64,000 nt of DNA from Mobula hypostoma (Eukaryota), in assembly GCF_963921235.1 (NCBI RefSeq), contig NC_086097.1, positions 14,756,001-14,820,000 on the forward strand. Reading direction: 5' to 3'. Below the pieces are notes generated by a model, which was given only the letters and a program-made list of their open reading frames with translations, had not been told where the DNA came from and searched no databases. Position numbers and translations under genes: made by a program. Positions 2,991-64,000 of the stretch are shown in pieces. Positions within the stretch are counted from its first letter, which is position 1; each line of letters opens with the position of its first letter.

Positions 2991-3580
2991 TTCATTATGT
3001 ATTTGAATGATTTGGAAATTTTGGACTGGGTAATTAACCCATTTCTTTGTAAGGTGGAAGAACATTATTGAAATTCAGAATGATGAAGAAGCAAAAATGG
3101 TTTTCAAAATTGTCGGCTTTCATGGTATGTGGCTACATAGTCTCACGAAGTTTCCTGGTCTTTGGAGAAGAGCCAAACTGCTCTTCATGGCATTTCCATC
3201 CTCCTACCTTGTTGAACGAAGCTTCAGTGCAGTTAACCACATACTTACAAAAAACAGAATCCACTTGGACATTGTTATGTGTGGGGATTTAAGGCTTTTG
3301 CTGTCACAACTTGAACCATATATTTCAACTCTTGCTAAAAACCATCAAGCTCAAGGATCACATTGATATCGTAGTTGCTGTACAGTACACAGATACTGTG
3401 TAAACTGGGATTAAAGACAAATAAAAATATAAAGCAGAATTATTTTTCTCATGTTAGCATATGGTAGACGTGTCTTTACACAATAAGGGCACTGAAAAGT
3501 ATATCGTGCCTAAGAATAGAGTTGGCTAGTATGAATGTGCTTTGTGGGAGCATTGGGCTATAAAAGGTTGGGAGACACTG

Positions 3581-4950: not shown

Positions 4951-6437
4951 TACTCCTTCCACAAGCATCCAATCCCTCCACCATTAACAGACAGTTTTTT
5001 AGCAGTGTGTATTATCTACAAGATGCACTGCAACAACCCAACAAAGTTCCCAAGGCAGCACTTTCCAGATCCACGACAACTACCATCTAGAACAGGAGTG
5101 GCCAACCTTTTACATTCCATGAGTCAATTTTTTCACGCACAAGTTCAGATGTGCCATACAACTCTTGTACTCCCATTCAATTCTTGTAAAATATGTTAAT
5201 AGAGACATATTTAGCATTTTTACATGATATATTGATTTAATATGAAAACAAGATAAACATTACTTAATTCCGTTTTTTGGCTAACACTAAAGCAATTTCA
5301 TAGGACGCTTCTGTCATCGCCAAACTTTTACAACTTCTTTTAACAAATATGTTTTGCCTGCTTTTGATTTCTTCCTTTTTCTTAATCACATATTCTTTCC
5401 GTAACTCAGACCCAAGCACTAGCTTCAGTTTTCCTTCTATTTCAGTCTGATGTTGCATTTTATAGTGTCTATTAAGATCATGCCTTCTATTATGTGAGAA
5501 AGTGTTTTCACAAACAATGCACAATGGTTCTCCTGACGGACCCGCTGTAAATAAGAACTCATTTTCCCACTGTTCATTGAATTCATGCTTACTATCACTT
5601 TCTACTTTTCTTTTGCACTGTGATGGGTAACTGAATGTAAAACCAAGGCTTAATTTTTGAAAAAGTACAAAACTGCAAATGTTCACAAAGGACGAACAAA
5701 GCACAACTCCGCAGCGCATGAGTGTCAATTGTAAACTGGCTGGCAAAAACCTGCGACGTACCGCTGGTGCAGACGCCTGGCACCTCAGGATCAAACAAGT
5801 ATCAAACGTTATGGAACGAATGAGGAACAAAAGTTCTTCTTTCCTAGTTTGACTCATTGAACATTTCTTAAAATTGAAAACAGATTAATGTGAAAAAAGA
5901 TAACATCTGCCAAAAGATGTGCACGAAATAATAAAATCGCTAAAATAATTGCTAAGTTTTAGATTTATTCTCAGTAAAACCCACTTCTAGCTCTAAGCTA
6001 CTTGATTTTTTTTCTACAAATCGGTTTTTGCTTAATACTTTTTGCATGAGTAGGCTTACTTTTTTATTATCATCGCTAGGGTGCAATGCGCCACTTCGAG
6101 TCATCCAATGCACCACTTTTGGTGCATGCGCCATAGGTTGGCCATCCCTGATCTAGAAGGACAAGAACAGCAGATACCTGGGAACACCACCATTTGGCAA
6201 TCCCCCTCCAAGTCACTCACCATCCTGACTTGGAAACATATCACCATTCCTTCATTGTCGCTGGGTCAAAATCATGGAATTCCCTCCCTAACAGCACTGT
6301 GGGTGTACCTACACCTCAGGGACTGCAGCAGCTCAAGAAGGCAGCTCATCAACACCTTCTCAAGGGCAACTGGGGATGGGCAATAAATGCTGTCTTAGCT
6401 GGCAACTTCCACATCCTGTAAATGCATAAATAAAAAT
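4951..6437 (+). mobile_element. CR1-group LINE 3' fragment split by a hAT element
   Basis: SFIVAGSKSWNSLP..LQQLKKAAHQHLL C-terminus with an A-rich tail; sequence is contiguous across the TSD ATCTAGAA. Confidence 0.65.
5093..6150 (-). mobile_element. Non-autonomous hAT (SPIN/GTF2IRD2-like) element with a truncated BED-finger transposase N-terminus
   Basis: TIRs CAGGAGTGGCCAACCT and AGGTTGGCCATCCCTG; 8-bp TSD ATCTAGAA at 5085-5092 and 6151-6158; ORF 5264..5857 contains FNEQWENEFLF..PLCIVC..LNRHY..H. Confidence 0.9.
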
Positions 6438-7276
6438 AAGAAACCAGAGCACCTGGGGTCATGGGGAGAACATACAAACGCATTACAGATGGCGGTGGGA
6501 ATTGAACCTGGGTCACTGGTACTGTAGAGCGTTGTGCTAGCCACTTATGCTATGGTGCCACTCAAGTTTTGACAGTGAGATAGCAAGAAGAATCTCACCT
6601 GGCCAGTTAAACTGAAAATGCTGGAAGCACACAGCATCACTAAGGAAAGGAGCTGTGTTTACATTTTGGATCAAGCTAGCACTTTCACTGGTACACGACA
6701 TGAAGCGGCCTTTTTTGGAAACATTGACTCAATTTCTCTCTCCAGTGATGCTGCCTGACCCACAGGATACTTCCAATGTTCCCTGCTTTCATTTTCAGGT
6801 TTATCACCTGCACTTTATTGGTCCAAATCAGCAACAATGTGATTATGTTACCATAGGATGTAGAAGATAGAACTCTGAAACACAGCCCAGACCCTTCGGC
6901 CTACAATGTTGTGCAGACATTTTAACTTACTGTAAGATCAATTTAAATCTTCCCTCCCACATCCCCCTCCATTCTTCTTTCATCCATGTGCCTATCAGTC
7001 CCTTCAATAGTCCTAATGTAAGAGCATAAGATCATAAGATATCGGAGCAGAATTAGCTCATTTGGCCCACTGAGCCTGCACCGCCATTTCATCACGGCTG
7101 ATCAAAATGTTGCTTCTTTGACAATCCATCACTTGCTGGAGTTAGGCAGTCCATCGGAATCAGAATCAGGTTTAATATCACTGGCATTTGTCATGAAATT
7201 CTTTGTTTTGTGGCAGCAGTACAGTGTAATACATAATAAAAAACAATAAATTACCAAAAAAATATACGTGTATATA

Positions 7277-7835
7277 CAGTGGACTCCAGTTAATTGGAAC
7301 ACATCAGGACCAGTACATTTTGACCCAATTAAATGGCTGCCCTAACTACCCAAAGTTCCATGAAAGTGGTTAAAAGCTATAAGAGAGACTAACTACCATT
7401 TAATTGAGTAACAATTTATGTACTGTATTTAAATGAAATACAGAATGAATTAGAACACTACTAATACTACTCCAGTACTATAAAACTGTGAATTAGTTCC
7501 TAATAGTTATCACAGAGGAATTAATCTGGCGAGTGTTTTTGATTGACTGTAAATGAACAAAGTCAGCGCAGAAAATGCTATAGACGATTGCATCCTCCAA
7601 ATTTTCATTTTCGTTGTAACTTTAAGATGATTGGCGATACCATCGTAGTTCCTAACTGTTAAAGTAGTGAAATCGTTTCATTGTCACTCCTGGCTGTTTC
7701 TGGCATCTCCAAGCCTAAATGCTTGAAACCGCACGGAGCAAAATAGTTCGGAATTGTCTTACTGCTTATTTCTCGGCAACTAACAGTGAGAAAAATCATT
7801 GTTTTTTAACACAAGCATATGCAACAGATGCTATT
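7277..7835 (-). mobile_element. Tigger/pogo-like non-autonomous fragment
   Basis: TA|CAGTGGACTCCAGTTAATTGG terminus; internal sequence is the reverse-complement homologue of 34400-34720. Confidence 0.65.
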
Positions 7836-8375
7836 TTCATGTAATCAAAGAAAAGGTGAGTGTAGCTGGGACCCATGTGTGTGCCCAAGGCTACACCTAT
7901 ACCTTGTAGAAAGTGGAAGAAGCCTAAAGAGAAATTGTTGAGGGAGAGAACCAGATGGAGGAGGGAGTTAGTGGAGGGGAACTTGTTAGGTCTGTTATTT
8001 CCGATGTAACCCCAGTCTTATGAGGAAAGCTTAAGCAAGATAGGGCTTTTCTGTTCGGAGCACAGGAGGATTGCTAACATTCCCTCAATTTCTTTGCTTC
8101 TTCCCTCTGTTAAAGATCTTGAAAACTCTGATCAATATCTCAAGACACTCAAAGATAATCAAATATTCAAGTAAACTAAAAATCAACTTATTAAAATATA
8201 AAATTAAATTAAATTGAATCACTAAGCAATCAAATCATTTGTATAAAGCAATTCAAAAAATTGTACCTGATACTTGGGTCAATTTACTCTCTGAAGTGGA
8301 TGAACTCTGCACTCGCTGACATTTTGGGTGTTGTCAGTGTAGAGTCTTCAGACTGTCGCTGTGACTGCTCCGTTT

Positions 8376-9869: not shown

Positions 9870-10180
9870 AGAGGCAGGGGGAGGAGCGAAGCAAAGAGTT
9901 GGAGAGTCGACTGGTGAAAGAGATAAAGGGCTGGAGAAGGGGGGAATCTGATAGGAAAGGACAGAAGGCAATAGAGGTATTCCGGCTGGGTAGCCTCATG
10001 ATGGCATGAACATCAATTTCTTGAACTTCTAGCAATGGCCCACACACTACCCCTCCTTCTCCATTCCCATTCCCATCTCCTTACCTGCCCATCATCTCCC
10101 TCTGATGCTCCTCCCTCTTCCCTTTATTTTGTGTGTGTTGCTTTGAGTTTCCAGCATCTGCAGATTTTCTTGTGTTTGTC
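9870..10180 (+). mobile_element. Penelope-like 3' end with an inverted upstream piece
   Basis: Endonuclease C-terminal remnant (FRLGSL..DGMNINF) at about 9980-10030 and a pyrimidine-rich 3' UTR; a purine-rich inverted UTR piece lies at 9870-9975. Confidence 0.65.
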
Positions 10181-10922: not shown

Positions 10923-11110
10923 AAATGCAAGAGATTTTGCAGATGTTGGAAATATTAAGCATCACACAAAATGCTGGAGGAACTCAGCAAGTCAGCAGCA
11001 TCTGTGGAAGGAAATAAACAGTCGATGTTTTGGGCTGAGATCCTTCATCAGGACAGGCCTTGGCCCAAAGCGTTGACTGTTTATTCCCTTCCACAGATGC
11101 TGTCTGACTT
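10923..11110. mobile_element. Penelope-derived fold-back unit with two degenerate hammerhead motifs
   Basis: Inverted arms at about 10989-11044 and 11055-11110; TSD AT(G/A)AAATTTGTT at 10911-10922 and 11111-11122. Confidence 0.75.
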
Positions 11111-24294: not shown

Positions 24295-26896
24295 TGTTAT
24301 ATATTCATGTCTATTTTAACCCTTACGGGTTCCCTATGTGTTACATACTGAACATTGATGACCTTTTTTGCAGGATTGGCCAGAGGACATGTGCCAATCG
24401 TACTTGCAGATGCATGTGGAGGCAGAGTCTTAGGAGCTGTTGACCATCGTGACTCGCAAAGGAAGGTACCAAAGGCTTCCGTTTGGCGTCACCTCAGTTC
24501 CCGCACCTTTTCAGCAAGCAATGGACCTGAACGGGTCGACAGGGATACCATGATATTTGGATGACTTACTCATCACTGGGAAACACATCACCACAGAGCG
24601 TAAGTCAATTAAGATCTTTCTTGGGTCTACTTAGATACTTCGCAAAGTTTGTTCCTAACCTAGGTAGCAAACTGTAACCAATTTCTGAGCTTTGAAATAA
24701 ATCAACACACTGGCAGTGGACACATCACTGTGAAGAGGCTTTTAAAAAGGCCAAGGCAGCTTTGTCACAATCTGAAACACTCACACACTTCAGCCGGTCA
24801 TTGCCCATACAACTGGCCTGTGACGCATCACCCTGTGGTGCAGGGGCATTTACCTCACACATCATGCCATGGGGTGAAGGCTTTCGCATCAAGGACATTA
24901 AGCAAGGCAGAAAGACACTCTGCCCAGACTGAGCGGGAAGCATTCGTGCTAGTGCTTGGAGTTAAGGAATTCCATCAATTCCCTTCTGTTCGATGATTTA
25001 CACTGCTGACAGATTATCGCCCATTGATGTCAATTTTTGTTCCACATATGGGCATTCCTTCCCTGGCTGCTAGTTGAATATAATACTGGGCTCTGTTACT
25101 ATCTGCACGTCAGTACGATACACGGCAGTACTGGAGGTCTGAGCACCATTCAATGCTGATGGACCTATCCAGACTTCCACCAGCTGACACAGCTCCAGAG
25201 CAATCCCTACAAGAGATATTTCACTTCAAGGAAGCATCTACAGCTTTGACAGCTGCGGCGCAAGTCAGAAGCACACACATACTGACCCTGTTCTACCTAA
25301 AGTGTTGGACGTGGTAACTCATGAATGGAATGGAAAGCCATTCATAGAATTGAAACCTTACCAGGCTCTATGGAAAGAGCTCACCATCCAAGCAGAATGT
25401 TTACTATGGGGCTACCGTGTTGTCATTCCTCCACCATTCAGAAAGAGAGTGCTTGACCAGCTACATGCAAGACACTATGGCGACGTGCACATGAAAGGCG
25501 TCGCATACAGCTACTTCTGGTGGCCAGGACTGCAACGTAGCTATTGACGAGTAGGCCAAAGCATGCCCACTTTGTCAGCGAGTGAGAAATGTTCCTCTAC
25601 TCGCTCCTTTGCATCCATGAGAATGGCCCGAAGCAACATGGCAGAGGGTTCACATAGAGTTTACAGGACCCGGAGAAGGCCACATGTTCTTGGTTGTAGT
25701 GAACTCACACAGCAAATGGCCTGAGGTTGCCATCACAGAGGTCACTACATCTGAAAAATGGATTGAGGAGCTACGTTCCATCTTTAGCTGTTTTGGGCTT
25801 CCTTAACAGCTTGTAAGTGACAAATACCCTGAAGAGTTTAAGGCACTTATGGAAGCAGATGGTATTCAGCCCATCAAGTCAGTACCAGATCATCCAGCCA
25901 CTAATGGTCTTGCTGAACAATTCGTACAAGCAATGAAACAAGCCCCCAAGACTTCAATGGGAAGTGGATCCCTCAAGCAGCGTCTAAACAATTTTTTGCT
26001 GACATACCATGACACACCACTACTAAAATGGCTCTAGCCACCGTATTGATGAAAAAACAGCTTCGTATCCAGCTTGACCCGCTTGGACCCCCAGACACAA
26101 AACAGATTGTGCTAAATGAACAGAAAACCTAAGCAGAAAGACGTGCCAAAGCAACATACAGGTGTCTCACAGCAGGACTTGCCTAGAACTACATCTCTGG
26201 AACAAAGTGGATAGTGGTGGCTCAGTCTGGTCCTGTATCATACACAGTGCCAGATCCATTTGTAGAAATGGGACAGGGTTCTGAGACAACGACTCCAGAA
26301 CCTCCGTTCAGATCAAATGACACAGTCAGAGATCCCCCATCACCTGTGCTTTCTGAGGTGCCCCCCATTGACAACGTAGTACCCAAGCCGAGTTCTATAC
26401 ATACACCACCAAGAGATAAAATCACGTTGGCATCATCCCCAGGCTGTCGGTACTCTCACAGGAACAGGCAGCCTCCAGACAGATTGAATCTCTAGTTTAG
26501 TGACTAACCTTCAGCACATGGGGCAGAATAATCCCCAGGGTTATGTCTACGAATAGAGGCAGACTGTTCTTTTCCCTTGTTTAGAAACAAAATGATTTTT
26601 GTTGTTGGTTGAATTTGATGATTACTCCATTGAATGTTAATAGTTCAGCAGCTAGTCTGCGTATGGGAAGGGGGAAAAGCATTTAAAGTATGGGGCAGAG
26701 ATATGTTATGCATTTATGTATGTCTTGATCCTTAAGGAGTTCTCTCAAGCCTCCCTGTGTGTTACATACTAAATGTAATGTGAGAGAACATTCTGGGTAA
26801 ATGACTTACAAGTAAAATAAACAACTGCATATTTGTTCCTCACCTCTCTGTCTCTCCTGTGTGTTATTCACGGCCACACGGCTACCCAGTACCACA
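24295..26896 (+). mobile_element. Decayed Gypsy LTR retrotransposon (pol remnants, 3' LTR 26704-26896, 5' LTR remnant)
   Basis: RT RLPFGV..FQQAMD, RNase H LACDASP/SRTLSKAER..EREA, integrase LLWGYRVVIP..YFWWPGL and HPATNGLAE; purine tract before the TG...CA LTR; 24295-24355 resembles the LTR start. Confidence 0.9.
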
Positions 26897-29859: not shown

Positions 29860-29960
29860 TGTAACACACATAAAACGCTGGAGGAACTCTGCAGGCAAGG
29901 CAACATCTCTGAAAAAGAATGAACAGTTGACATTTCGGGCTGAGACACTTCATCAGGACA
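29860..29960 (-). ncRNA. Penelope-derived unit with a minimal hammerhead motif
   Basis: Minus strand GTC CTGATGA AGTGTCTCAGCCC GAAA TGTC AACTG; core boxes intact, stems weakened. Confidence 0.6.
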
Positions 29961-30343: not shown

Positions 30344-30466
30344 ACAACAGGAATTCTGCAGATGCTGGAAATTCAAGCAACACACATCAAAGTTGCTGGT
30401 GAACGCAGCAGGCCAGGCAGCATCTGTAGGAAGAGGTGCAGTCGACGTTTCAGGCCGAGACCCTTC
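30344..30466 (-). mobile_element. Penelope-derived unit truncated inside the hammerhead core
   Basis: Minus strand GAAGGGTCTCGGCCTGAAACGTCGACTG; 10-bp TSD GTTTGCATGA at 30334-30343 and 30467-30476. Confidence 0.75.
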
Positions 30467-32642: not shown

Positions 32643-33080
32643 AAACACACTCAAAATGCTAGAGGAACTCAGCAGGCTAGGCCCAGGCCCTTCAGCAGAA
32701 CTGGAAAGGAAGGAGAGGAGTCAGAGCAAGAAGGTGAGGGGAGGGGAGGAAGTACAAAGTGGCAGGTGATAAGTGAAACAGGCAGAGGGGGATTGGGAAA
32801 GCGATAAAGGCCTGGAGAAGGGGAAATCTGATAGAAGAGGACGGAAGACCATGGAAGAAAGGGAAAGGGGGGGGCACCAGAGGGAGGTGATGGGTAGATA
32901 AGAAGATTAGGTGAGAGAAGGAAATAGGAATGGCAAATGGTGAAAGAGAGGAGGATGGAGGGCAATTGCTACAAGTTTGAGAAATGGATGTTCCTGCCAT
33001 CAAGTTGGAGGCTACCCAAATGGAATATAAGGTGTTGCTCCTCCAACTTGAGTGTTACAAGATGTTGCTCCTCCAAGCCC
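32643..33080 (-). mobile_element. Penelope-like 3' fragment (GIY-YIG C-terminus plus 3' UTR)
   Basis: Minus frame LKLEEQHLIFHLGSLQLDGRNIHFSNL*; TSD TGTTCCAATG at 32633-32642 and 33081-33090. Confidence 0.8.
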
Positions 33081-36529: not shown

Positions 36530-37330
36530 GAATAGAACACTACAGCACAGAAACAGGTACTTCAGCCCATCTAGTCTGTGCTGAACCATTAATCTGTTTA
36601 GTCCCATCAACCTGCACTTGGAGCATAGCCCTCCATATCCCTCCAACCCATGCACGTATCCAAATTTCTCTTAAATGTTGAAATTGAACCCACCTCCTGC
36701 ACCTGCGCTGCAGTTCATTCCACACTTTCTCCTCCCTTCAAGTGAACAGGTTCGCCTCACGTTCCCCTTAAACATTCTACTTTTCACCCCTATCCCATGA
36801 CCTCTACTTGTAGTCTCACCCAACCTTGGTGGAAAAATACTATCTACAACCCTCATAATTTTTTTATAGCTCTATCAAATCTGCTCTCAATCTTCTCAGT
36901 CTAGGGAACAAAATCTGAATTTATTCAAACTTTCCCTAAACTCAGGTCCTAAAATCCTGCCTCTGCACTCTTTCAATCTTATTCACATCTTTCCTGTACA
37001 TAGGTGACCAAAACTGCACACAATACTCCAAAATAAGCCTCAGCAAAGTATTACCTAGGAAGAGGTACAGTCCTTCGTCCTGACGAAGGGTCTCGGCCTG
37101 AAACGTTGACTGTACCTCTTCCTAGAGATGCTGCCTGGCCTGCTGTGTTCACCAGCAACTTTGATGTGTGTTATCCAAACTCCTTAACTCATTACATTGA
37201 TTTATAAAGGCCAATGTGCCCAAAGTTATCTTTGTGACGCTATCTACCTGTGAAAGCACTTTCAAGGAATTATGGATAGTATTGCCAGATTCCTCAGATC
37301 TGCTGCATTCCTCAGTGCCCTAATGCTCAC
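36530..37330 (-). mobile_element. CR1 3' fragment interrupted by a hammerhead unit
   Basis: Homologous to 54295-55150 and 3581-3900. Confidence 0.8.
37055..37172 (+). ncRNA. Minimal hammerhead motif enclosed by a perfect 18-bp stem
   Basis: GTC CTGACGA AGGGTCTCGGCCT GAAAC GTT GACTG; arms at 37055-37072 and 37108-37125. Confidence 0.65.
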
Positions 37331-37342
37331 CTCGTCAGATCT

Positions 37343-37443
37343 AGCAACACACACAAAATGCTGGAAGATCTCAGCAAGCCAAATAGCACAATGGAAAAGA
37401 GTAAACAGTCGACGTTTCAGACCGAGACCCTTCATCAGGACTC
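37343..37443 (-). ncRNA. Penelope-derived unit with an intact minimal type-I hammerhead motif
   Basis: Minus strand AGTC CTGATGA AGGGTCTCGGTCT GAAAC GTC^GACT; predicted cleavage between 37411 and 37410. Confidence 0.7.
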
Positions 37444-37542
37444 TGAGTGAAGTTAGAATTGGAGAGAGGAGTAGTAAAGCTGAAACGGTTGATGTCTCAT
37501 CTGCAGTTAGCAATGAAAAGATCCAGAGCAGGCAGAAGACCA

Positions 37543-40500
37543 GGAATCAGAATCAGGTTTTATTATCACCGCTATGTGACGTGAAATTTGTTAACAGCAG
37601 CAGCAATACATAATATAGAAGAAAAAATAATAAATAAAAAAAATAATTAACATAATAATAAATAAATAAATTACCTTACACATATATTGAACATATTAAA
37701 AAATGTGCAAAAATCAGGAATACTGTATATTTTTAAAAAGTGAGGTAGTGTCCAAGGTTTAATGTCCATTTAGGAATCGGATGGCAGAGGGGAAGAAGCT
37801 GTTCCTGAATTGCTGAGTGTGTGCCTTCAGGCTTCTGTACCTCCTACCTAATGGTAACAGTGAGAAAAGGGCATGGCCTGGGTGCTGGAGGGTTCCTTAA
37901 TAATGGACGCTGTCTTTCTGAGACACTGCTCCTGAAGGTGTCCTGGGTACCTTGTAGGCTAGTACCCATGATGGAGCCAACTAAGTAGCCCCCCCCCCCA
38001 TACCAGACAGTGATGCAGCCTGTCAGAATGCTCTCCACGGTACATCTATAGAAGTTTTTGAGTGTATTTGCTGATGTGCCAAATTTCTTCATAATGAAAT
38101 ATAGCTGCTGTATTACCTTCTTTCTAACTACATCGACATGTTGGGACCAGGTTAGATCCTCAGAGATCTTGACACCCAGGAACTTGAAACTGCTCACTCT
38201 CTCCACTTCTGATCCCTCTATGAGGATTGGTATGTGTTCCTTCATCTTACCCTTCCTGAAATCCACAATCAGCTCTTTCGTCTTACTGACATTGAGTGCC
38301 AGGTTGTTGCTGCGGCACCACTCCACTAGTTGGCATATCTCACTCCTGTACGCCCTCTCGTCACCACCTGAGATTCAACCAACAGTGGTTGTATCGTCAG
38401 CAAATTTATAGATGGTATTTGAGCTATGCCTAGTCACACAGTTCGTGTATATAGAGAGTAGAGCAGTGGGCTAAGCACACACCCCTGAGGTGCGCCAGTG
38501 TTGATTGTCAGCGAGGAGGATATGTTATTACCAATCCGCCCAGATTGTGATCTTCCAGTTAGGAAGTCGAGGATCCAATTGCAGAGGGAGGTACAGAGGC
38601 CCAGGTTCTGCAACTTCTCAATCAGGATTGTGGGAATGATGGTATTAAATGCTGAGCTATAGTCGATGAACAGCATCCTGACATAGATGTTTGTGTTGTC
38701 CAAGTGGTCTAAAGCTGTGTGGAGAGCCATTGAGATTATGTCTGCCATTGATCTATTGTGGCGATAGGCAAATTGCAGTGGGTCCAGGTCCTTGTTGAGG
38801 CAGGAGATCAGTCTAGCCATGACCAACCTCTCAAAGCATTTCATCACTGTCGATGTGAGTGCTACCGGGCGATAGTCAGAAAGGCAGCTCACATTTTTCT
38901 TCTTAGGCACTGGTATAATTGTTGCCTTTTTAAAGCTAGTGGGAACTTACGCCCGTAGCAGTGAGATGTTGAAAATGTCCTTGAATACTCGTGTCAGTTG
39001 GTTGGCACAGGTTTTCAGAGCCTTACGAGGTACTCCATCGGGAACTTCTGCCTTGCGAGGGTTCACTCTCTTTAAAGACAGTCTAACATAAGCCTCTGAG
39101 ACAGAGATCACAGGGTTATCAGGTGCAGCAGGGATCTTCACAGCTGTAGTTGTGTTCACCCTTTCAAAGCGGACATATGAGTTCATCTGGTAGTGAAGCA
39201 TCACTGCCATTCATGTGATTGGGTTTCGCTTCGTAGGAAGTAATGTCTTGCAGACCCTGCCAGAGTTGCCGTACATCCGATGTCACCTCCAGCCTCTTTC
39301 AAAATTGTCTCTTCGCCCTTGAAATAGCCCTCCGCAAATCATACCTGATTTTCTGGTACAGGCCTGGATCGCCAGACTTCAATGCCACAGATCTAGCCTT
39401 CAGCAGACGATGTACCTCCTGGTTCATCCACGGCTTTTGGTTTGGGAATGTACAGGAAGTCTTTGTAGGCACGCACTCGTCCACACAGGTTTTAATGAAG
39501 TCGGTAACGACTGCAGCATACTCATCCAGGTTTGAAGATGAATCCCTGAATACAGTCCAGTCCACCGATTCAAAGCAATCCTGTAGGAACTCCTGTGCTT
39601 TGCTTGTCCATACCATCTTGATCCTCAGTACTGGTGATGCAGTCTTCAGTCTCCGCCTATACTCAGGGAGTAGAAGTATGGTCAGGTGATCAGACTTCCC
39701 GAAGCGAGGGCGTGGAATAGCACGGTAGGCATTCTTGATGGTGGTGTAGCAAAGGTCCAGTGTGTTGTTTTCTCTGGTATTGCAGGTGATCTGTTGATGA
39801 TAATTGCTTAGTGATTTTTTTCCAGACTGGCCTGGTTAAAGTCTTCCAAAACAACGGTGAAGGCATTAGGATGCGCTGTTTCTTGTAGGTTGATCCCATT
39901 GCTCAGATGATCTAAAGTCTGTTTGACATTGGCCTGAGGTGGAATGTAAACTGCTACCAAAATGACCCTAGAGAACTCCTGTGGTAGTTAAAAAGGACAG
40001 CATTTAACTGCTGGATATTCCAGGTCTGGTGAGCAGAATTGGAACAGCATTGATATATTTCTGCACCAAGAAGAGCTGATCGTGAGGCATACTCCTCCAC
40101 CTCTGCTTTTGAGAAAATATAGATCTGTCCTGACGGTCTATAGTAAACTCGTCAATGTGAATCGCTGCATCCGGTACGGAAGGGGTTAACCAGGATTCTG
40201 TGAAACAGAGGACCCTTGCGGTCCTAATGTCCCTCTGATTCAGCACCCTAACTCTGAGATCATCGATCTTATTCACCGGAGACTGTACATTTGTCAGCAA
40301 GGTGGTTGGTATAGGGAGTTTAAAACCCCATTTCCTTAAATGCACTTGTAACCCCGCTCTGCACCCGTGCTTCCTCCATGGTGTCCTATGTGGGCACTTC
40401 CAACCATAATCGGTGTCGTTTCTGACAGTTTTAAGCAACAATAGTTTGTTTAAAAGCATTAAGATATCTTTGTTGACTGTACTGATCTTGGAAGCAGTTG

Positions 40501-40585
40501 TGCTTTTTAGCTGTATCAGGCTGAAACAAGAATATTTAATCGTATCCATTGAGAGTACTGCTGCTACTTGAGTCACACCTAGGTG
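37543..40585 (-). mobile_element. Near full-length Rex1/Babar LINE, frameshifted
   Basis: APE domain (LLTNVQS..NKIDDL..LCFTESWL), RT ([36 protein letters not shown]), C-terminus and (GATTCT)n tail. Confidence 0.95.
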
Positions 40586-40589
40586 CCCC

Positions 40590-41590
40590 AGAGGAGGAGG
40601 AGGAGGGCTGAAGATGGGAGAAGGAGTCAACGGTGTGGGCTGGAGAGTCTTTTACAAAGAAATAAGGATGGAAATGGAGGTGGTTGATGAAGAGCTCAGT
40701 GTCATAGCGGACGTGGAATTCACTGAGGTGTGGGCACAGAGGTACAAAGCTGAGGTCCTTACTGAGGACAGGATATTCTGCCTCAGAGAGGGGAAGGTCA
40801 GAGGGAATGGTGAAGACCCGGCACAGATGAGACCTGGGATCAGAGGAGGGGACAGGAGTTGGTAGTGTCTGAGGAGAGGGGAGTGTTGGGGTTTTCAGGA
40901 AGATGGAGTCTCCCATGATCCAAGAGCTGATGGTGGGACCTGAGAGACATGGGATTGCAGAGTGGTGCTGGAGGAAGGGGAGACTGGGGTTCCAGCAGCA
41001 GCACGCAAGATCCTGGCCTGGAGGTGTTGTCCAGGCTGGAGTCCGAGTTGGAGGTTGTGCAATAGACACTTTGAAGGTGTCCAAATTTGTCAGAACCTGC
41101 ATTGATGGTGGTGGAGACCGGTTCTGGATCTGCTTGGGATTGTTACGTCCATTGAGGTCAGCGGCACGGATCGCGGTCTGATGACATCCGTGCCTACTGG
41201 CGTTGGAGACGACAGGCTCTGTAAACTGTAGACGGGCGATCTTCCAATCCTTACTAAACGTGAGAATGGTGATTGAAAGTGTACTTCCAATGGAGGATAA
41301 AGTGTCAGACAGATCCATTGCAGGCAGCATAGAGAGAATCCCAGAGCTGTGGAAGCGGCTGGGACAGGAACCTCAGGTACCTCCTCCTGGCAGAAGGTGT
41401 GGTACATAAAATGTGGTGGGAGAAACAGTCGATTGAATGCGAGGTCTTGGAGTCCTCAGAGGGTTCGAATCAAGAAGTTTGAAAACTGATCTGGAACCCA
41501 TGTGACAAAAGATGACAGCAAGGACTCAACAGGTCAGGCAGTATCTATGGACAAGAGTAAACAGTCCACATTCTGGGCCAAGACCTTGTA
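40590..41590 (-). mobile_element. Penelope-like element N-terminal ORF remnant with a degenerate hammerhead/pLTR upstream
   Basis: RVFTIPSDLPLSEAE..VLSKDLSFVP motif (LSKGLxFxP-type) in ORF 40536..41330; 41510-41590 matches the hammerhead unit family. Confidence 0.75.
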
Positions 41591-43614: not shown

Positions 43615-44020
43615 GGCAACACACACAAAATGCTGGAAGAACTCAGCAGGTCAGGCAGCTTAAGTGGAAATGAATAAACAGTTGAGGATTTGAGCCAAGA
43701 CCACCTTCAGGAAGGAAGAGGGAAGACATCAGAATAGAAATGTGGGGGGAAGGGGCAGGACGACCAGCTAGAAGGTGATTGGTGAAGCCTGGAGTGGAGG
43801 GAAAGGTAATGGGCTGGAGAAGAAGGAATCTGATAGGAAAGGAGAGAGGACCATGTGAGAAAGGGAGAAAGGAGGGGCACCAGGTGAAAGTGATAGGCAG
43901 ATGAGGAGAAGAGGTAAGAGCCCAGAATGAGGAATAGAAGAAGAGGGAAGGGAGAGGGAAAAAATTACTAGAAGGAGAAATCGCTGTTCATGCCATCAGG
44001 TTGGAGGCTTCCTAGATCCC
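43615..44020 (-). mobile_element. Penelope-like 3' end with a decayed hammerhead
   Basis: LGSLQPDGMNSDFSF* at about 43970-44016; same UTR as 32643-33080. Confidence 0.75.
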
Positions 44021-46154: not shown

Positions 46155-46404
46155 TACATCAACACACGTAGTGAATTGTTTCGTTTGCGTTAACAGCCCA
46201 AGTTCAGGGTGGTGAAGCAGATGCCAAGCCTGATGGATGTTACACAGCTCTCAGGGGTTCATTGACAGCCCATCAATGGAAGGACCACCCCTGTCCGCCA
46301 ATGGAGTAGCAGTATTTTTCTGCTGCTCTTAGTTTTCTTTCTTTCCCCCTAGTTTAAGCTTTGAATTTAAAATTTTTACTTGTTGATTCTTGAGGGTGAT
46401 CAAT

Positions 46405-47241
46405 ATGTCTATGTCTAGAAGAAGTGGGAAGAATTTACCTGAACCTAGTGATAAAGGTAATGGGAAAGGAAAGGTGCTAAAGGAAAGATCTGATGAAATG
46501 CCATCGTGGGCTGAAGATATTGTTTGGACACTGAATTCAATCAAGGATCAGAATGGATCAACTAAAGACCAACTGGAAAAGAATAGTAATGAAATGAAGT
46601 CATTTCTGGGAAAACTTAAAGACCTGGAAACTCAAGTTATTTCACACGAAGAGGAATTGAAGATAACTAAGCAAAAGCTGTCTGAAGCTACAACTTGTTT
46701 GGAAAGATATCAAAATAAGATTATAGACCTGGAAACTAGGTCTCGACGAAGGAATATAACAATTGTTGGGCTGCAGGAGGGAGCTGAAGATGGAGATCTA
46801 ACAGCTTACTTTGGTAAGCTTTTCCACACTTTATTTCCTACCATTCTATCAAAGCTGCCTGCTATTGAAAGGGCACACAGGGCGTTTATCTCGAAATCGA
46901 AGGACTCTAGTAAACCAAGATCTGTTCTGGTTTGCTTTCATCACTTTAAAATTAAAGATCAAATAATACGACAGGCAAGAAAACAGAGAGTTTTTAGATT
47001 TATGGAATCTGAGCTCCACTTCTACGAAGATTATCCAAGAGAGATAATGGAACAAAGATCAAAATTTGCCCTGGTAATGAAACAAGCATATGATAAGAAT
47101 CTTTTCCCGTCTTTGAGGTATCCGACAAAACTTAAAATTTTCCCTCCCAATTCTCCTCCTCGTACTTTTTTTGATCCAAAAGCTGCACTGGATTTTGTTG
47201 AGGCTTTGCCTGCCGCTGTCACCGACACCGCTGTTGAATGA
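46405..47241 (+). CDS. LINE-1 ORF1p-like protein (coiled coil, RRM, CTD); open frame, no ORF2
   Basis: DLETRSRRRNITIVGLQEG, IERAHR, PRSVLVCF and FYEDY motifs; ATG at 46405; unit 46279-47238 is flanked by the direct repeat TGACAGCCC(C)ATCAATG. Confidence 0.85.
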   Translation: MSMSRRSGKNLPEPSDKGNGKGKVLKERSDEMPSWAEDIVWTLNSIKDQNGSTKDQLEKNSNEMKSFLGKLKDLETQVISHEEELKITKQKLSEATTCLERYQNKIIDLETRSRRRNITIVGLQEGAEDGDLTAYFGKLFHTLFPTILSKLPAIERAHRAFISKSKDSSKPRSVLVCFHHFKIKDQIIRQARKQRVFRFMESELHFYEDYPREIMEQRSKFALVMKQAYDKNLFPSLRYPTKLKIFPPNSPPRTFFDPKAALDFVEALPAAVTDTAVE

Positions 47242-48151
47242 CAGCCCCATCAATGAGAGACGTGGAATGGCGCTTGCAAATATGCAAAGGAATCAAAGCT
47301 AAGGTTGTGCTTGGGGCAGTCCGCAAGTGTCACCACACATTTCAGTGCCAACACATCATGTTCCCATGTCCGCAGAACACACAATCAACAACAACAAAAC
47401 AAAACAAGCCCCTTTCCTCCCTCCCACCCACCCACCTAAACACAGGCAGTCCTCTAACCCCATATGGCATTTGAATTAAAGTTTCCTTGCTCCCTGAAAC
47501 AAAAAAATATCTCCACATCCATCTGTTAGTATGGCTGAATGCTTGTGTTGAAACGGTCTTTGTGATCCTGTCATGGTGTATCTTTACCTGTCCCATCTGC
47601 TCTGTGGTGCTGCTTCCAACAGAGGTGTGACATTTTCTGGTCTACACTGATGAAACACGTATCTATAGCTCGCTTGACTCTTTGAGTTTGCAATCTTCAA
47701 GAGGATATGACACTGCCCGCCCATTTACAATCTTCCTGCACATTGCAAACTCATGAATTCATGGGCTTTAAGTGCTGTACCTTAAGATCGATTCTTCGCT
47801 TTGGGAGGATATTGTAATCTTAAACATCATTGATTATGATTGCACCAACAAGCATGGCATTGATACACCAAACGAGTGTTCTGGCCACAGAGGTAACCTC
47901 ATTTGGGAACTGATTCATTGGGTCCAGCTGATGCTCTGAGAATGACTTTGTCTCTGTCCCTGCATGGCTCATGTCAACTACTCCATGGATTTTGGGTTCT
48001 CTTCTCTCAGAATGGTTTGAGAAATCACCAGCCCATCGCCACCCACTGGTGCCCCTCCTCCTGCCCCTTCTTCCATGGTCTACTCTCCTCTCCTCTCCTC
48101 CTCCCCCATGCACCTGCCTTCCTCCTCACCTGGTCTCACCTATATCACTTG

Positions 48152-50031: not shown

Positions 50032-50228
50032 ATCTTGCACTCCTTTCCCTGTCCATACCTTCATATTCTGGCTTCTTCCCCCTTCGTTTCCAGTCTTGAT
50101 GAAGGGTCTTGGCCTGAAATGGTGACAGTTTATTCCTCTCCATAGATGCCGCCTGATCTACTGTGTTTCCCCAGCATTTTGTGTTTGTTGCTCTGGATTT
50201 GCAGCATCTGCAGAATCTCTTGTGTTTA
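50032..50228 (+). mobile_element. Penelope 3' UTR with a mutated hammerhead
   Basis: CAGTC TTGATGA AGGGTCTTGGCCT GAAATGGTGAC; continues the UTR piece at about 48020-48151. Confidence 0.7.
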
Positions 50229-51136
50229 TGATATTCCAATCCACATTCATTCATAGTTCCTTAAGGTTGATTTAGCAGGGTGGGGGGCAGTGGGGGGGGG
50301 GGGGTAAGCTCCTACTACTTACTAAATGCTCCCAATGGCGTGCATCTCACATAGCCTCTGACAACTAATTCCAGTTCCTGGCCTTCATGTGCAGCTCAGC
50401 TACTAGGCCCAGAGGAACCATTTCCATTGACAGGGAAAGGCGGGTAACCGGCATCTTAAAACCAGTCACTTCTGGCAGATAGGGCTCATTGTGAGTAACG
50501 CAGACAAAACTCACACATTCCCATCCTCATTGAGGTTGGCGTTTATTCCCCATGGCACCCAGCGGTCTCAAAACACCTCCATGTTAACTGTGCTTGCTCT
50601 TGACACTATAAGCTTGGCTTTGGGTGCCTTTGCATATCTGCACAGACTTTTCCAGGGTTTTCTTTCCTCTCCCTCAAATGAGAAAGCCTCTGCCCTGCTA
50701 GGATCTCAGGTGACACAAGTGTTCCGATCTGTGATCTGAAGCAATGCAATTATTTGCTAATAGCATAAACTTTATTAAAATTGTGTCAAAGAATTCTCCC
50801 CGCTCTCAGCTGCAAACAATAAAGCAGCCGCGCCAAAGGGTTTAATTTCCGGACATAAGAGACTGCAGGTGCTGGAGGAACTCAAAGTTCAAAGTAAATT
50901 TATTATTAAAATACAAATATGTCACCATATACTATCCCGAGATCCACTTTCTTGCAGGCACTTACAGTAGAGAAAAGAATACAATAAAAAACAACTCAGA
51001 AGGTCAATAAGTACCTGTGGAGGGCTAATGCACAGTTGATGCTTTGGTCTAATGTTTGTGTGCGTGCCAATGTCTCTGTTATGTGCTGTGAGTATGGCGT
51101 GGGTGTCCATTTCAAGGTAGATTGCTGTTTATAATT

Positions 51137-57415: not shown

Positions 57416-57873
57416 ACTTGTGACTGGGTTTTTTAAGTCTGGTGACTTGTTTCGTTAGTAATATTATAGGCCTATTTGCTTTTCTCTTGGGGCTGCAAAT
57501 CTATTGGCCCACAAGTACCAGCAACAACAACAGCAGCAGAAATGCTGAAGGCCAGCTGAAGAAAACCAGTCTCTTGAATTTGGAACACCCTGTTGTCGTA
57601 TGAGCACAAGATGAAATGGATCTGATATTATGGTATCTCTTTACCCTGTCCTTCCAATCAGACAACCAAATGGACTTGCAGGTAAAGAAAGGTGACTTGA
57701 ATGTGCTGGTGTTTAAGCCACTGTTTGGAGAAGGGCAAGAATGGACCTCCCTTGCCCCCATTTCTTTACATGTTAAAGCTTGCTAATCTCTCCCCAGTTT
57801 TGATGGAAGTTCATGCCTTGAAACATTAATCCTGCTCCACTCTCCAAAGAATCAGCCTGAATATTTTAAAGAA

Positions 57874-58150: not shown

Positions 58151-58309
58151 AATTAACACAAAGATAACCAGACAAATTCATAAGTTCACACGAGAGACTG
58201 CACATGTTGGTATCAGGAGCATTAGACAAACTGCTGAAGAACTCAGAAGGCTGAGCAGCACCTGTGGGGCAAAGAAACAGTTGACATTTCAACTGCTCCA
58301 TCCTCAGCT

Positions 58310-61370: not shown

Positions 61371-61884
61371 ATGAGGAGAAATTTTAGACCAGAGATGAGG
61401 AGGAATTTCATTAGCCAGAAGGAAGTGAATCTGAGGAATTCTTTACCACAGATGACTGCTGAGGCCAAGTCTTTGGGTATAATTAAGCAGAAGTTGATAG
61501 GTTCTTGATTAGTCAGATCATCATAGGTTAAAGGAAAAAGACGGGAGAATAGGGGCAGGAAGGATAATAAATCAGTCATGATGGAATGGTGGAACAGACT
61601 CGATGGGCTAAGTAGCCTACTTCTGTTCCTGGATCTTATTGTCTTATGTCTTGCTAGGACTTTATTAAGCTACATGTATAATATACTTCTGGTAAGATAG
61701 TGGAGCAGCAGCCTTTCTGAGTCCAAACAAAGATGGAATTGATCATCCTTTCACAAACAAGAGAAAATCTGCAGATGCTGGACATCCAAACAACACACAA
61801 AAAATGCTGGAGGTACTCAGCAGGCCAGGCAGCGTCTATGGCAGCATTTTTTTTATGATCGCAAGACACCGCTGGACATTATGT

Positions 61885-63517: not shown

Positions 63518-63692
63518 ATTGTACTTCTCCCAGAGCACTCACCAAACAGCTCTGTCCTCCAGACCTTTGGAATGACTTGGTTGTCTTCTTCACTGATCTC
63601 CAGCTCTTGAGATTCTTCAGCCTCTGCCTCATGTCCCTCTGGCTCTGAGCTGCAGGCTGTTCTTTTTTAAAGTATTCATTCAAGGGATGGGC

Positions 63693-64000
63693 CACAACAC
63701 ATACAAAATGCTGGAGGAAATCAGCAGATCAGGCAGCATCTATGGAAAGGAACAAAAGAGTTGATATTTTGGGCCTAATCCCTTCATCAGGCCTGGAAAG
63801 GAAAGGGGGAAGAAGCCAGAATACAAAGGTGGGGTGGGGAAGAAGTACAAGCTAGAGGGTAATAGATGAGACCAGTTGAGGGGCAAAGTGGGAGGATGGG
63901 GGAGAGGAGTTGAAGTAATAAGTTGGGAAGTGATAGGTGGAAGAGGTAAAGGGCTGAAGAAAAAGTAACCTGATAGGAGAAGACAGTGGACAATGGGAGA
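63693..64000 (-). mobile_element. Penelope 3' UTR with a mutated hammerhead (runs off the window)
   Basis: Minus strand CAGGC CTGATGA AGGGATTAGGCCC AAAATATC (G12 mutated). Confidence 0.7.

Follow-up and report, generated by a model that had tools for sequence, protein, structure and literature searches.

Short hammerhead-bearing repeats in a ray genome are very probably cut-off ends of a Penelope-like element

Minimal hammerhead ribozymes have been described in the pseudo-LTR segments (pLTRs) of Penelope-like elements (PLEs) from fishes, coelacanth, and Xenopus, with thousands per genome in the latter two; most copies are single and were ascribed to truncated PLEs (PMC4209133). In the same work, PLE hammerhead monomers did not cleave and dimers cleaved slowly. 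A lizard PLE inserts without need for cleavage, and cleavage by its hammerhead required the element's protein (PMC11167929). PLE ends may also carry an optional tail, which lies between two reverse transcription (RT) start sites (PMC11167929, PMC3846280), and a CX2-5CxxC linker marks the Neptune and Nematis clades (PMC8557442). No shark or ray is named in the searched text and supplement of PMC4209133, one further file of which may list more species, and our literature search found no paper devoted to PLE hammerheads of rays.

Here, we analyze a 64-kb stretch of a ray genome (“the window”; all positions refer to it), in which an initial annotation had described a dispersed family of short, hammerhead-carrying units and flagged one of them (37343..37442, minus strand). 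We conclude that these short repeats are cut-off tail ends of a Penelope-like element, i.e., ordinary and mostly decayed leftovers. The units are very probably the 3′ ends (pLTR segments) of an endonuclease-bearing (EN+) PLE, probably of Neptune type, that was heavily amplified in this genome.

The unit family and its parent element

A profile built from eight copies recovers 16 insertions in the window, comprising all 14 places listed by the initial annotation and two more, at 10126-10178 and 50993-51050. Specifically, the profile gave 19 rows at E ≤ 1; two inverted pairs were each merged into a single insertion, and a weak row (26149-26217, E = 0.28) was discarded, which leaves 16. The eight seed copies match by construction; the reversed window gives no match, and the weakest of the 14 previously listed places is 57794-57860 (E = 0.076). 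The dispersed family is therefore real, and its density, put earlier at roughly one unit per 5 kb, is about one per 4 kb.

The copies differ widely in what they retain. The flagged unit is a 3′ pLTR remnant consisting of the hammerhead and about 65 bp, with neither tail nor target-site duplication (TSD). Two copies form a young subfamily: 37055..37172 (plus strand) has a 5′ fold-back inversion and a full core with a GUU site that lies in a long hairpin, and 30344..30466 (minus) carries the tail, is 5′-truncated inside the core, and has an exact 10-bp TSD. The unit at 10923..11110 (minus) combines a tail and a 5′ fold-back inversion with a decayed core and a 12-bp TSD with one mismatch, and 6602..6803 (plus) is an old inverted pair of units with a 7-bp TSD. 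At 29860..29960 (minus), a unit that starts from stem I keeps the core letters (11/11), has a palindrome broken by a CpG change, and lacks a TSD; contigs from sequencing runs show this unit to be shared with organisms B and C. The remaining short copies are more eroded. These are a highly diverged unit at 57783..57860 (plus; weak 9-bp TSD), a diverged unit with tail that begins at the 3′ side of stem II (58190..58292, minus), a tailed unit truncated downstream of the hammerhead and thus without ribozyme (61750..61841, minus), and the short diverged unit newly found at 50993..51050 (minus; profile E = 0.0017).

Other copies grade into longer PLE fragments. Two 5′-truncated PLEs, at 32643..33080 (minus; half-deleted hammerhead unit, 10-bp TSD) and 43615..44014 (minus; decayed unit), are 69% alike over 320 bp; in each, the unit is preceded by the final codons of the ORF and then by a CT-rich 3′ stretch of about 260-270 bp. 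Two further copies begin within the CT-rich sequence: a tailed unit with about 58 bp of it (50034..50228, plus) and a unit with more than 210 bp of it that continues past the window end (63693..64000, minus). The other newly found copy belongs to a PLE end at 9875..10178 (plus), which comprises an inverted CT-rich piece, the ORF end, an internal deletion that removes the hammerhead, and the tail. The 32643 insertion has a short ORF-end piece repeated at its 5′ end (33040-33080, minus), which is likely a template-switch duplication.

The Penelope origin proposed for the units is supported by the ORF-attached copies, the PLE layout, and the insertion marks. The further proposal that some are attached to the PLE ORF or to GIY-YIG C-termini holds in part: the 32643, 43615, and 41521-41590 copies do adjoin ORF sequence, but at the C-terminal side only the last 14-24 codons are present, without a catalytic motif. 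The match of these codons to endonuclease ends is modest, namely E = 0.004 for the 32643 copy (related protein P0070, aa 924-947) and, with a profile of the last 36 endonuclease residues, E = 0.007 (43615) and E = 1; a profile of whole endonuclease ends missed them in the window.

The flagged unit had been taken for a free-standing copy with a TSD. This is not the case, since the adjoining 37445-37541 is PLE coding sequence and no TSD was found, whether around the flagged unit alone or around the larger element to which it belongs. This element, which runs on the minus strand from 41590 to 37343, is a single internally deleted PLE that was later split by a LINE. It opens with a 5′ pLTR remnant (41521..41590, minus) that begins inside the hammerhead, lacks CUGAUGA, has a degenerate core, and adjoins the ORF N-terminus. 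There follows the frameshifted N-terminal part of the ORF (40582..41517, minus), matched by related proteins P0001 (aa 137-228 at 40907-40605, E = 7e-32) and P0002 (aa 55-133 at 41517-41272). The later insertion is a non-LTR retrotransposon (37542..40581, minus; Pfam RVT_1, E = 6.5e-23 at 38437-38946) with a short CTGATT-type tail at 37542, which we take to be Rex1/Babar-like. Beyond it lies an ORF fragment from the region before the DKG motif with one stop (37445..37541, minus; tblastn to P0001 aa 238-271, 76%, E = 3e-10), which is matched by 12 relatives and is joined directly to stem I of the flagged hammerhead. Because the ORF is colinear across the 3-kb LINE to within about two codons and is back in register at 37541, we read 41590-37343 as one element. 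The RT, the endonuclease, and the 3′ region are missing, and the order is 5′ pLTR remnant, ORF N-terminus, large deletion, and 3′ pLTR unit, i.e., pLTR-ORF-pLTR. The boundary at 41590 is bridged by contigs of organisms B and C, which indicates that the element is old.

A search of 1.84 billion proteins with the open frame at 40539-41372 found 68 relatives (6 of the 68 looked up); the two highest-ranking come from stingrays, and others from sharks and a brittle star, which makes a ray the most likely source of the window. Full-length relatives contain RT and GIY-YIG, with P0046 passing the Pfam GIY-YIG cut-off. The CX2-5CxxC linker is present in P0046 and P0070, as well as in 45 of the 51 related metagenome loci that reach this region (80 loci in all). 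A sense-strand minimal hammerhead lies upstream or downstream of the ORF in 11 of these 80 loci, compared to 2 antisense and none in shuffles, and stem III is palindromic in 10 of the 11. Exact hammerhead-pattern scans of metagenome contigs and of viral contigs each gave no match, and no ORF relatives were found in the viral contigs. The window contains no full-length PLE, and the Neptune assignment is drawn only from the relatives, because the window contains neither the linker nor the GIY-YIG motif and lacks most of the RT.

The window also contains an isolated PLE RT fragment at 7835-8030 (minus; 43% to P0046 aa 387-444, E = 1e-9) that lacks an adjacent hammerhead unit, and a piece of the PLE CT-rich 3′ sequence, without hammerhead, at the 5′ junction of a LINE (47950-48150, plus). 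Pfam searches of 264 of the 351 open frames of at least 60 aa returned transposon domains and weak matches only, with no GIY-YIG and no host gene. Degenerate LTR-retrotransposon pol pieces with RNase H and integrase domains, all but one below the Pfam cut-offs, lie at 24664-26034 (plus). A 284-aa open frame at 46387-47241 (plus), which includes a coiled coil, presumably represents an L1-type ORF1. A fragment at 5267-5884 (minus) resembles SPIN/hAT-type transposase (zf-C2H2_12, E = 3.7e-6), and we assume the same likeness for the fragment at 3034-3366 (plus).

Insertion marks and the crowding of junctions in the hammerhead

The insertions carry the marks of PLE retrotransposition. Of 14 insertions tested for TSDs, four have one (10, 12, 10, and 7 bp), both short and ORF-bearing copies among them, and a fifth has a weak one; among 1500 random intervals, a score of at least 9 occurs in 0.07% and of at least 7 in 1.9%. 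The earlier description of units with TSDs is therefore correct for these copies. In addition, there are two kinds of 3′ end, as six copies stop about 65 nt past the cut site and six clearly include a tail of 35-40 bp. The tail is the commonest loose end in sequencing run X5 (1088 contigs), and a loose tail end is seen in all four runs. An AT preference at the 3′ ends is not clear (77/130 letters vs 56% in the window).

The 5′ ends are staggered, at positions 1, 2, 2, 2, 8, 8, 11, 23, 26, and 48, and five copies extend further upstream, by 14 to about 380 bp, one of these with a TSD. The 36-nt hammerhead holds nine of the 16 5′ junctions, including those of all three fold-backs described below and the jump into the ORF in the flagged copy; per base, junctions are about five times as frequent there as upstream (p = 0.005, post hoc and with boundaries set by eye). 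The cut site itself is spanned by 12 of 15 aligned rows and is the starting point of none of the 16 insertions, which shows that the templates were uncleaved RNA, in line with the lizard element. Three insertions are head-to-head fold-backs with the apex in the hammerhead (6602-6803, 10923-11110, and 37055-37172), and one more inversion lies in the 3′ region. In the 37055 copy, the fold-back arm (37055-37081, plus) is made of two pieces: 7 nt that mirror the core, and 18 nt whose mirror begins with the first base after the cut site, where the stem I complement also lies. Such an inverted arm could arise by self-priming, either on stem I or on a cleavage product.

The crowding of junctions would be accounted for by RT stalling at the fold, by a nearby transcript start, or by a short master. 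We consider it possible, though doubtful, that the PLE RT preferentially stops and switches template at the hammerhead in vivo. This suggestion draws on the nine junctions, the three fold-back apices, the jump from stem I into the ORF in the flagged copy, and the long arm of the 37055 copy that starts from the first base past the cut site.

A less probable source is a short non-autonomous master of about 100-135 nt, consisting of hammerhead and tail, that is transcribed on its own and mobilized in trans by the PLE protein in the manner of a SINE. The same nine junctions would fit such a master, as would the four at stem I positions 1-2 and the short copy at 30344-30466 with its clean TSD. Summed contig depth, which is not copy number, is also highest of 30 bins on the bin of the young unit in runs X5, X15, and X16 and very low on the bin of the old ORF. 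However, the 5′ ends, although clustered in the hammerhead, are staggered (n = 16), and three of the four junctions at positions 1-2 are inversion or template-switch junctions. The five copies that extend upstream and the attachment of the flagged copy to ORF sequence count against this master as well. Moreover, an A-box/B-box pair (boxes as in PMC8969392, up to two mismatches each) occurs in none of the 16 units, and ARAGORN reports no tRNA in the window.

It is less probable still that the units stem from a non-LTR retrozyme, as dispersed monomers of an element that is tandem elsewhere and moves via small circular RNAs. Retrozymes derived from pLTRs have been reported in the one chondrichthyan genome examined (bioRxiv 10.64898/2026.07.22.740005), and one X16 contig (joint 29941 to 30344), which represents another locus, places a tail end, 39 CT-rich letters, and a hammerhead head-to-tail; this single contig fits a PLE partial tandem equally well. 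Against a retrozyme, none of the six tandem arrays of the window contains the unit, the 3′ ends coincide with the PLE tail sites, circular permutation of the copies is not seen, and the motif is the minimal PLE one rather than the canonical type of the retrozymes described in PMC7229834. Altogether, the proposal in the initial annotation that the units behave like a SINE or retrozyme family is not supported, given the staggered 5′ ends, the ladder of longer copies up to the ORF, the lack of Pol III box pairs and of tandem copies, and the place of the flagged copy in an ORF-bearing element.

We therefore return to truncated PLE ends as the preferred reading, for which published PLE work suggests a mechanism. 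The PLE protein would nick the target and begin reverse transcription at either of two neighboring sites, which lie about 65 and 100 nt past the cut site. The RT would copy through the uncleaved hammerhead and would often stop or switch template there, yielding short, fold-back, or deleted copies. In active masters arranged as partial tandems, the two pLTR hammerheads may pair via their ACGU palindromes into a double hammerhead and process the transcript, probably with help from the protein (PMC4209133, PMC6765202), and such processing would keep the core conserved between subfamilies. Singly inserted copies would be passive and would then decay, fastest at the CpGs of stem III.

Two other candidate signals around the hammerhead were considered. 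An acceptor-like, pyrimidine-tract CAG abuts stem I in three long copies (32700, 50094, and 63792; scores 7.3-11, >99.5th percentile) and recalls the intron end in Drosophila virilis Penelope. We did not adopt a splice acceptor at stem I, since none of 11 hammerheads of related invertebrate elements has the tract and the AG is in any case required for stem I. A conserved start codon 20 nt past the cut site was rejected by eye, as the subfamilies differ by one base downstream.

The flagged hammerhead and the decay of inserted copies

The flagged motif occupies 37407..37442 and reads on the minus strand from 37442 to 37407. Stem I (AGUC, 37442-37439) is followed by CUGAUGA (37438-37432), an unpaired A, and stem II; the 3′ half comprises GAAA, a loopless ACGU palindrome, and GUC^GACU, with the cut between 37411 and 37410. 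The sequence thus agrees with the minimal type I hammerhead with loopless ACGU stem III given in the initial annotation. All core letters (11/11) and all stem I pairs (4/4) are present together with the GUC site, while stem II, although it has 4/4 pairs, is weakened, with one Watson-Crick and three G-U pairs. The features of the minimal PLE type, namely a core of CUGANGA, GAAA, and NUH with short stems I and II, are all present. Rfam gives six matches in the window at E ≤ 1, no hammerhead family among them.

By sequence, the flagged motif is a minimal dimer-type hammerhead, a kind that would cleave as a dimer. Its double-hammerhead fold has a computed energy of +0.3 kcal/mol, vs −20.3 kcal/mol for the cofold minimum, and the column-majority motif reaches −12.0 kcal/mol; these are nearest-neighbor energies that ignore core contacts, usable as a ranking only. 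Dimer cleavage is reportedly described by Lunse et al. We found no intact partner for the flagged copy on its own strand within the window. The other complete copy (37055..37172), on the opposite strand and with a GUU site, is predicted to hold its core sequestered in the fold-back hairpin (−38.2 kcal/mol, z = −6.2).

Most units do not carry an intact ribozyme. A strict descriptor finds two intact hammerheads in the window. Among the 15 aligned rows (50993-51050 was left out of the alignment), the core is 11/11 in three, two of which also have the ACGU palindrome. Twelve rows cover the palindrome, and three of them keep it (the flagged copy, 37076, and 30466); the rest have changed, mostly at CpG. 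Indeed, the stem III CpG positions are the most mutated of all (15/36). Within copies, mismatches accumulate at the same rate in the core (19/121) and in the flank (163/801; p = 0.27), and inserted copies decay neutrally. In contrast, when the young subfamily (two copies) is compared with the old majority, the hammerhead differs at 3/35 positions and the flank at 19/64 (p = 0.02), and core, stem I, and stem III together show 0/21 differences. As such, the core boxes are more conserved between subfamilies than the flanking sequence, at the level of the master elements. Altogether, conservation between subfamilies combined with flank-like decay within copies points to selection on the masters and not on the inserted copies. 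By pair counts, 71% of cells in the window copies are paired, more than in any slid control, and covariation in these copies is not above shuffles.

Signs of a host gene were also sought around the units. On the minus strand at 63543-63650, starting 45 bp downstream of the 63693 unit, an exon-like stretch has two open frames, one of them acidic, and ends at a consensus GTGAGT donor; it is a possible host exon. Neither it nor a second exon-like stretch near 61700 has a match in the PDB, the protein collection, or the Atlas, and crude splice scans of the window reveal no convincing gene. Contigs of two presumed-RNA runs show no exon joint among the 15 joints listed (9193 more), which is no evidence either way on an intron or on cleavage; the same runs show no place where many molecules begin or end, again no evidence either way on cleavage. 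Published monomers are inactive, dimers are slow, and the lizard hammerhead is protein-dependent (PMC4209133, PMC11167929). It is thus highly improbable that intact copies within introns cut host pre-mRNA and affect expression, even though the flagged copy has all core letters, palindrome, and GUC site and a consensus donor follows an exon-like stretch on the same (minus) strand, given the neutral decay of the core, the single Watson-Crick pair in four of stem II, the unfavorable flagged dimer and its want of an intact same-strand partner, the hairpin-locked second complete copy, the absence of strand depletion (11 minus and 5 plus among the 16 insertions, p = 0.21), and the failure to find a host intron.

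Significance and comparison with known systems

As it stands, the finding extends the known association of minimal hammerheads with PLE pLTRs to a ray genome, which by itself matters little. It does carry a caution, namely that dispersed “ribozyme SINEs” in such genomes are mostly truncated PLE ends. If the hammerhead were a preferred RT stop across the genome, then the formation of pLTRs and inverted repeats would be shaped by the ribozyme fold or by its cleavage product, which would also yield a very large SINE-like class of about 100-135 bp and thereby a genomic read-out on the role of PLE hammerheads. Since the insertions are many, genome-wide 5′ junctions could test the role of cleavage or of RT stalling in PLE transposition, which the available text of PMC8557442 and PMC11167929 leaves open.

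The closest match by motif is the set of minimal PLE hammerheads in PMC4209133, with which the units share CUGANGA, an unpaired nucleotide before stem II, G10.1-C11.1 in the family majority, a short stem I, and a loopless palindromic stem III. Unlike the systems described there, the host is a ray, and 16 insertions lie in 64 kb with only two complete. With non-LTR retrozymes (PMC7229834; bioRxiv 10.64898/2026.07.22.740005), the units have in common that they are short, non-coding, related to pLTRs, and dispersed as monomers with a type I hammerhead. However, retrozymes are defined by tandem units and circular RNAs, whereas the units in the window are without tandem and grade into ORF-bearing PLE fragments.

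By their insertion marks, the units resemble Anolis Poseidon (PMC11167929), which has two RT start sites bounding the tail, a hammerhead at the pLTR-ORF junction, and uncleaved RNA as the main template; they differ from it in clade, in that no conserved start codon could be placed, and in showing no clear AT preference at the 3′ ends. Finally, they share with the Neptune EN+ PLEs (PMC8557442, PMC3846280) the pLTR-ORF-pLTR order, 5′ truncation, inverted 5′ copies, internal deletions, an optional tail of 30-40 bp, and TSDs of about 8-10 bp.
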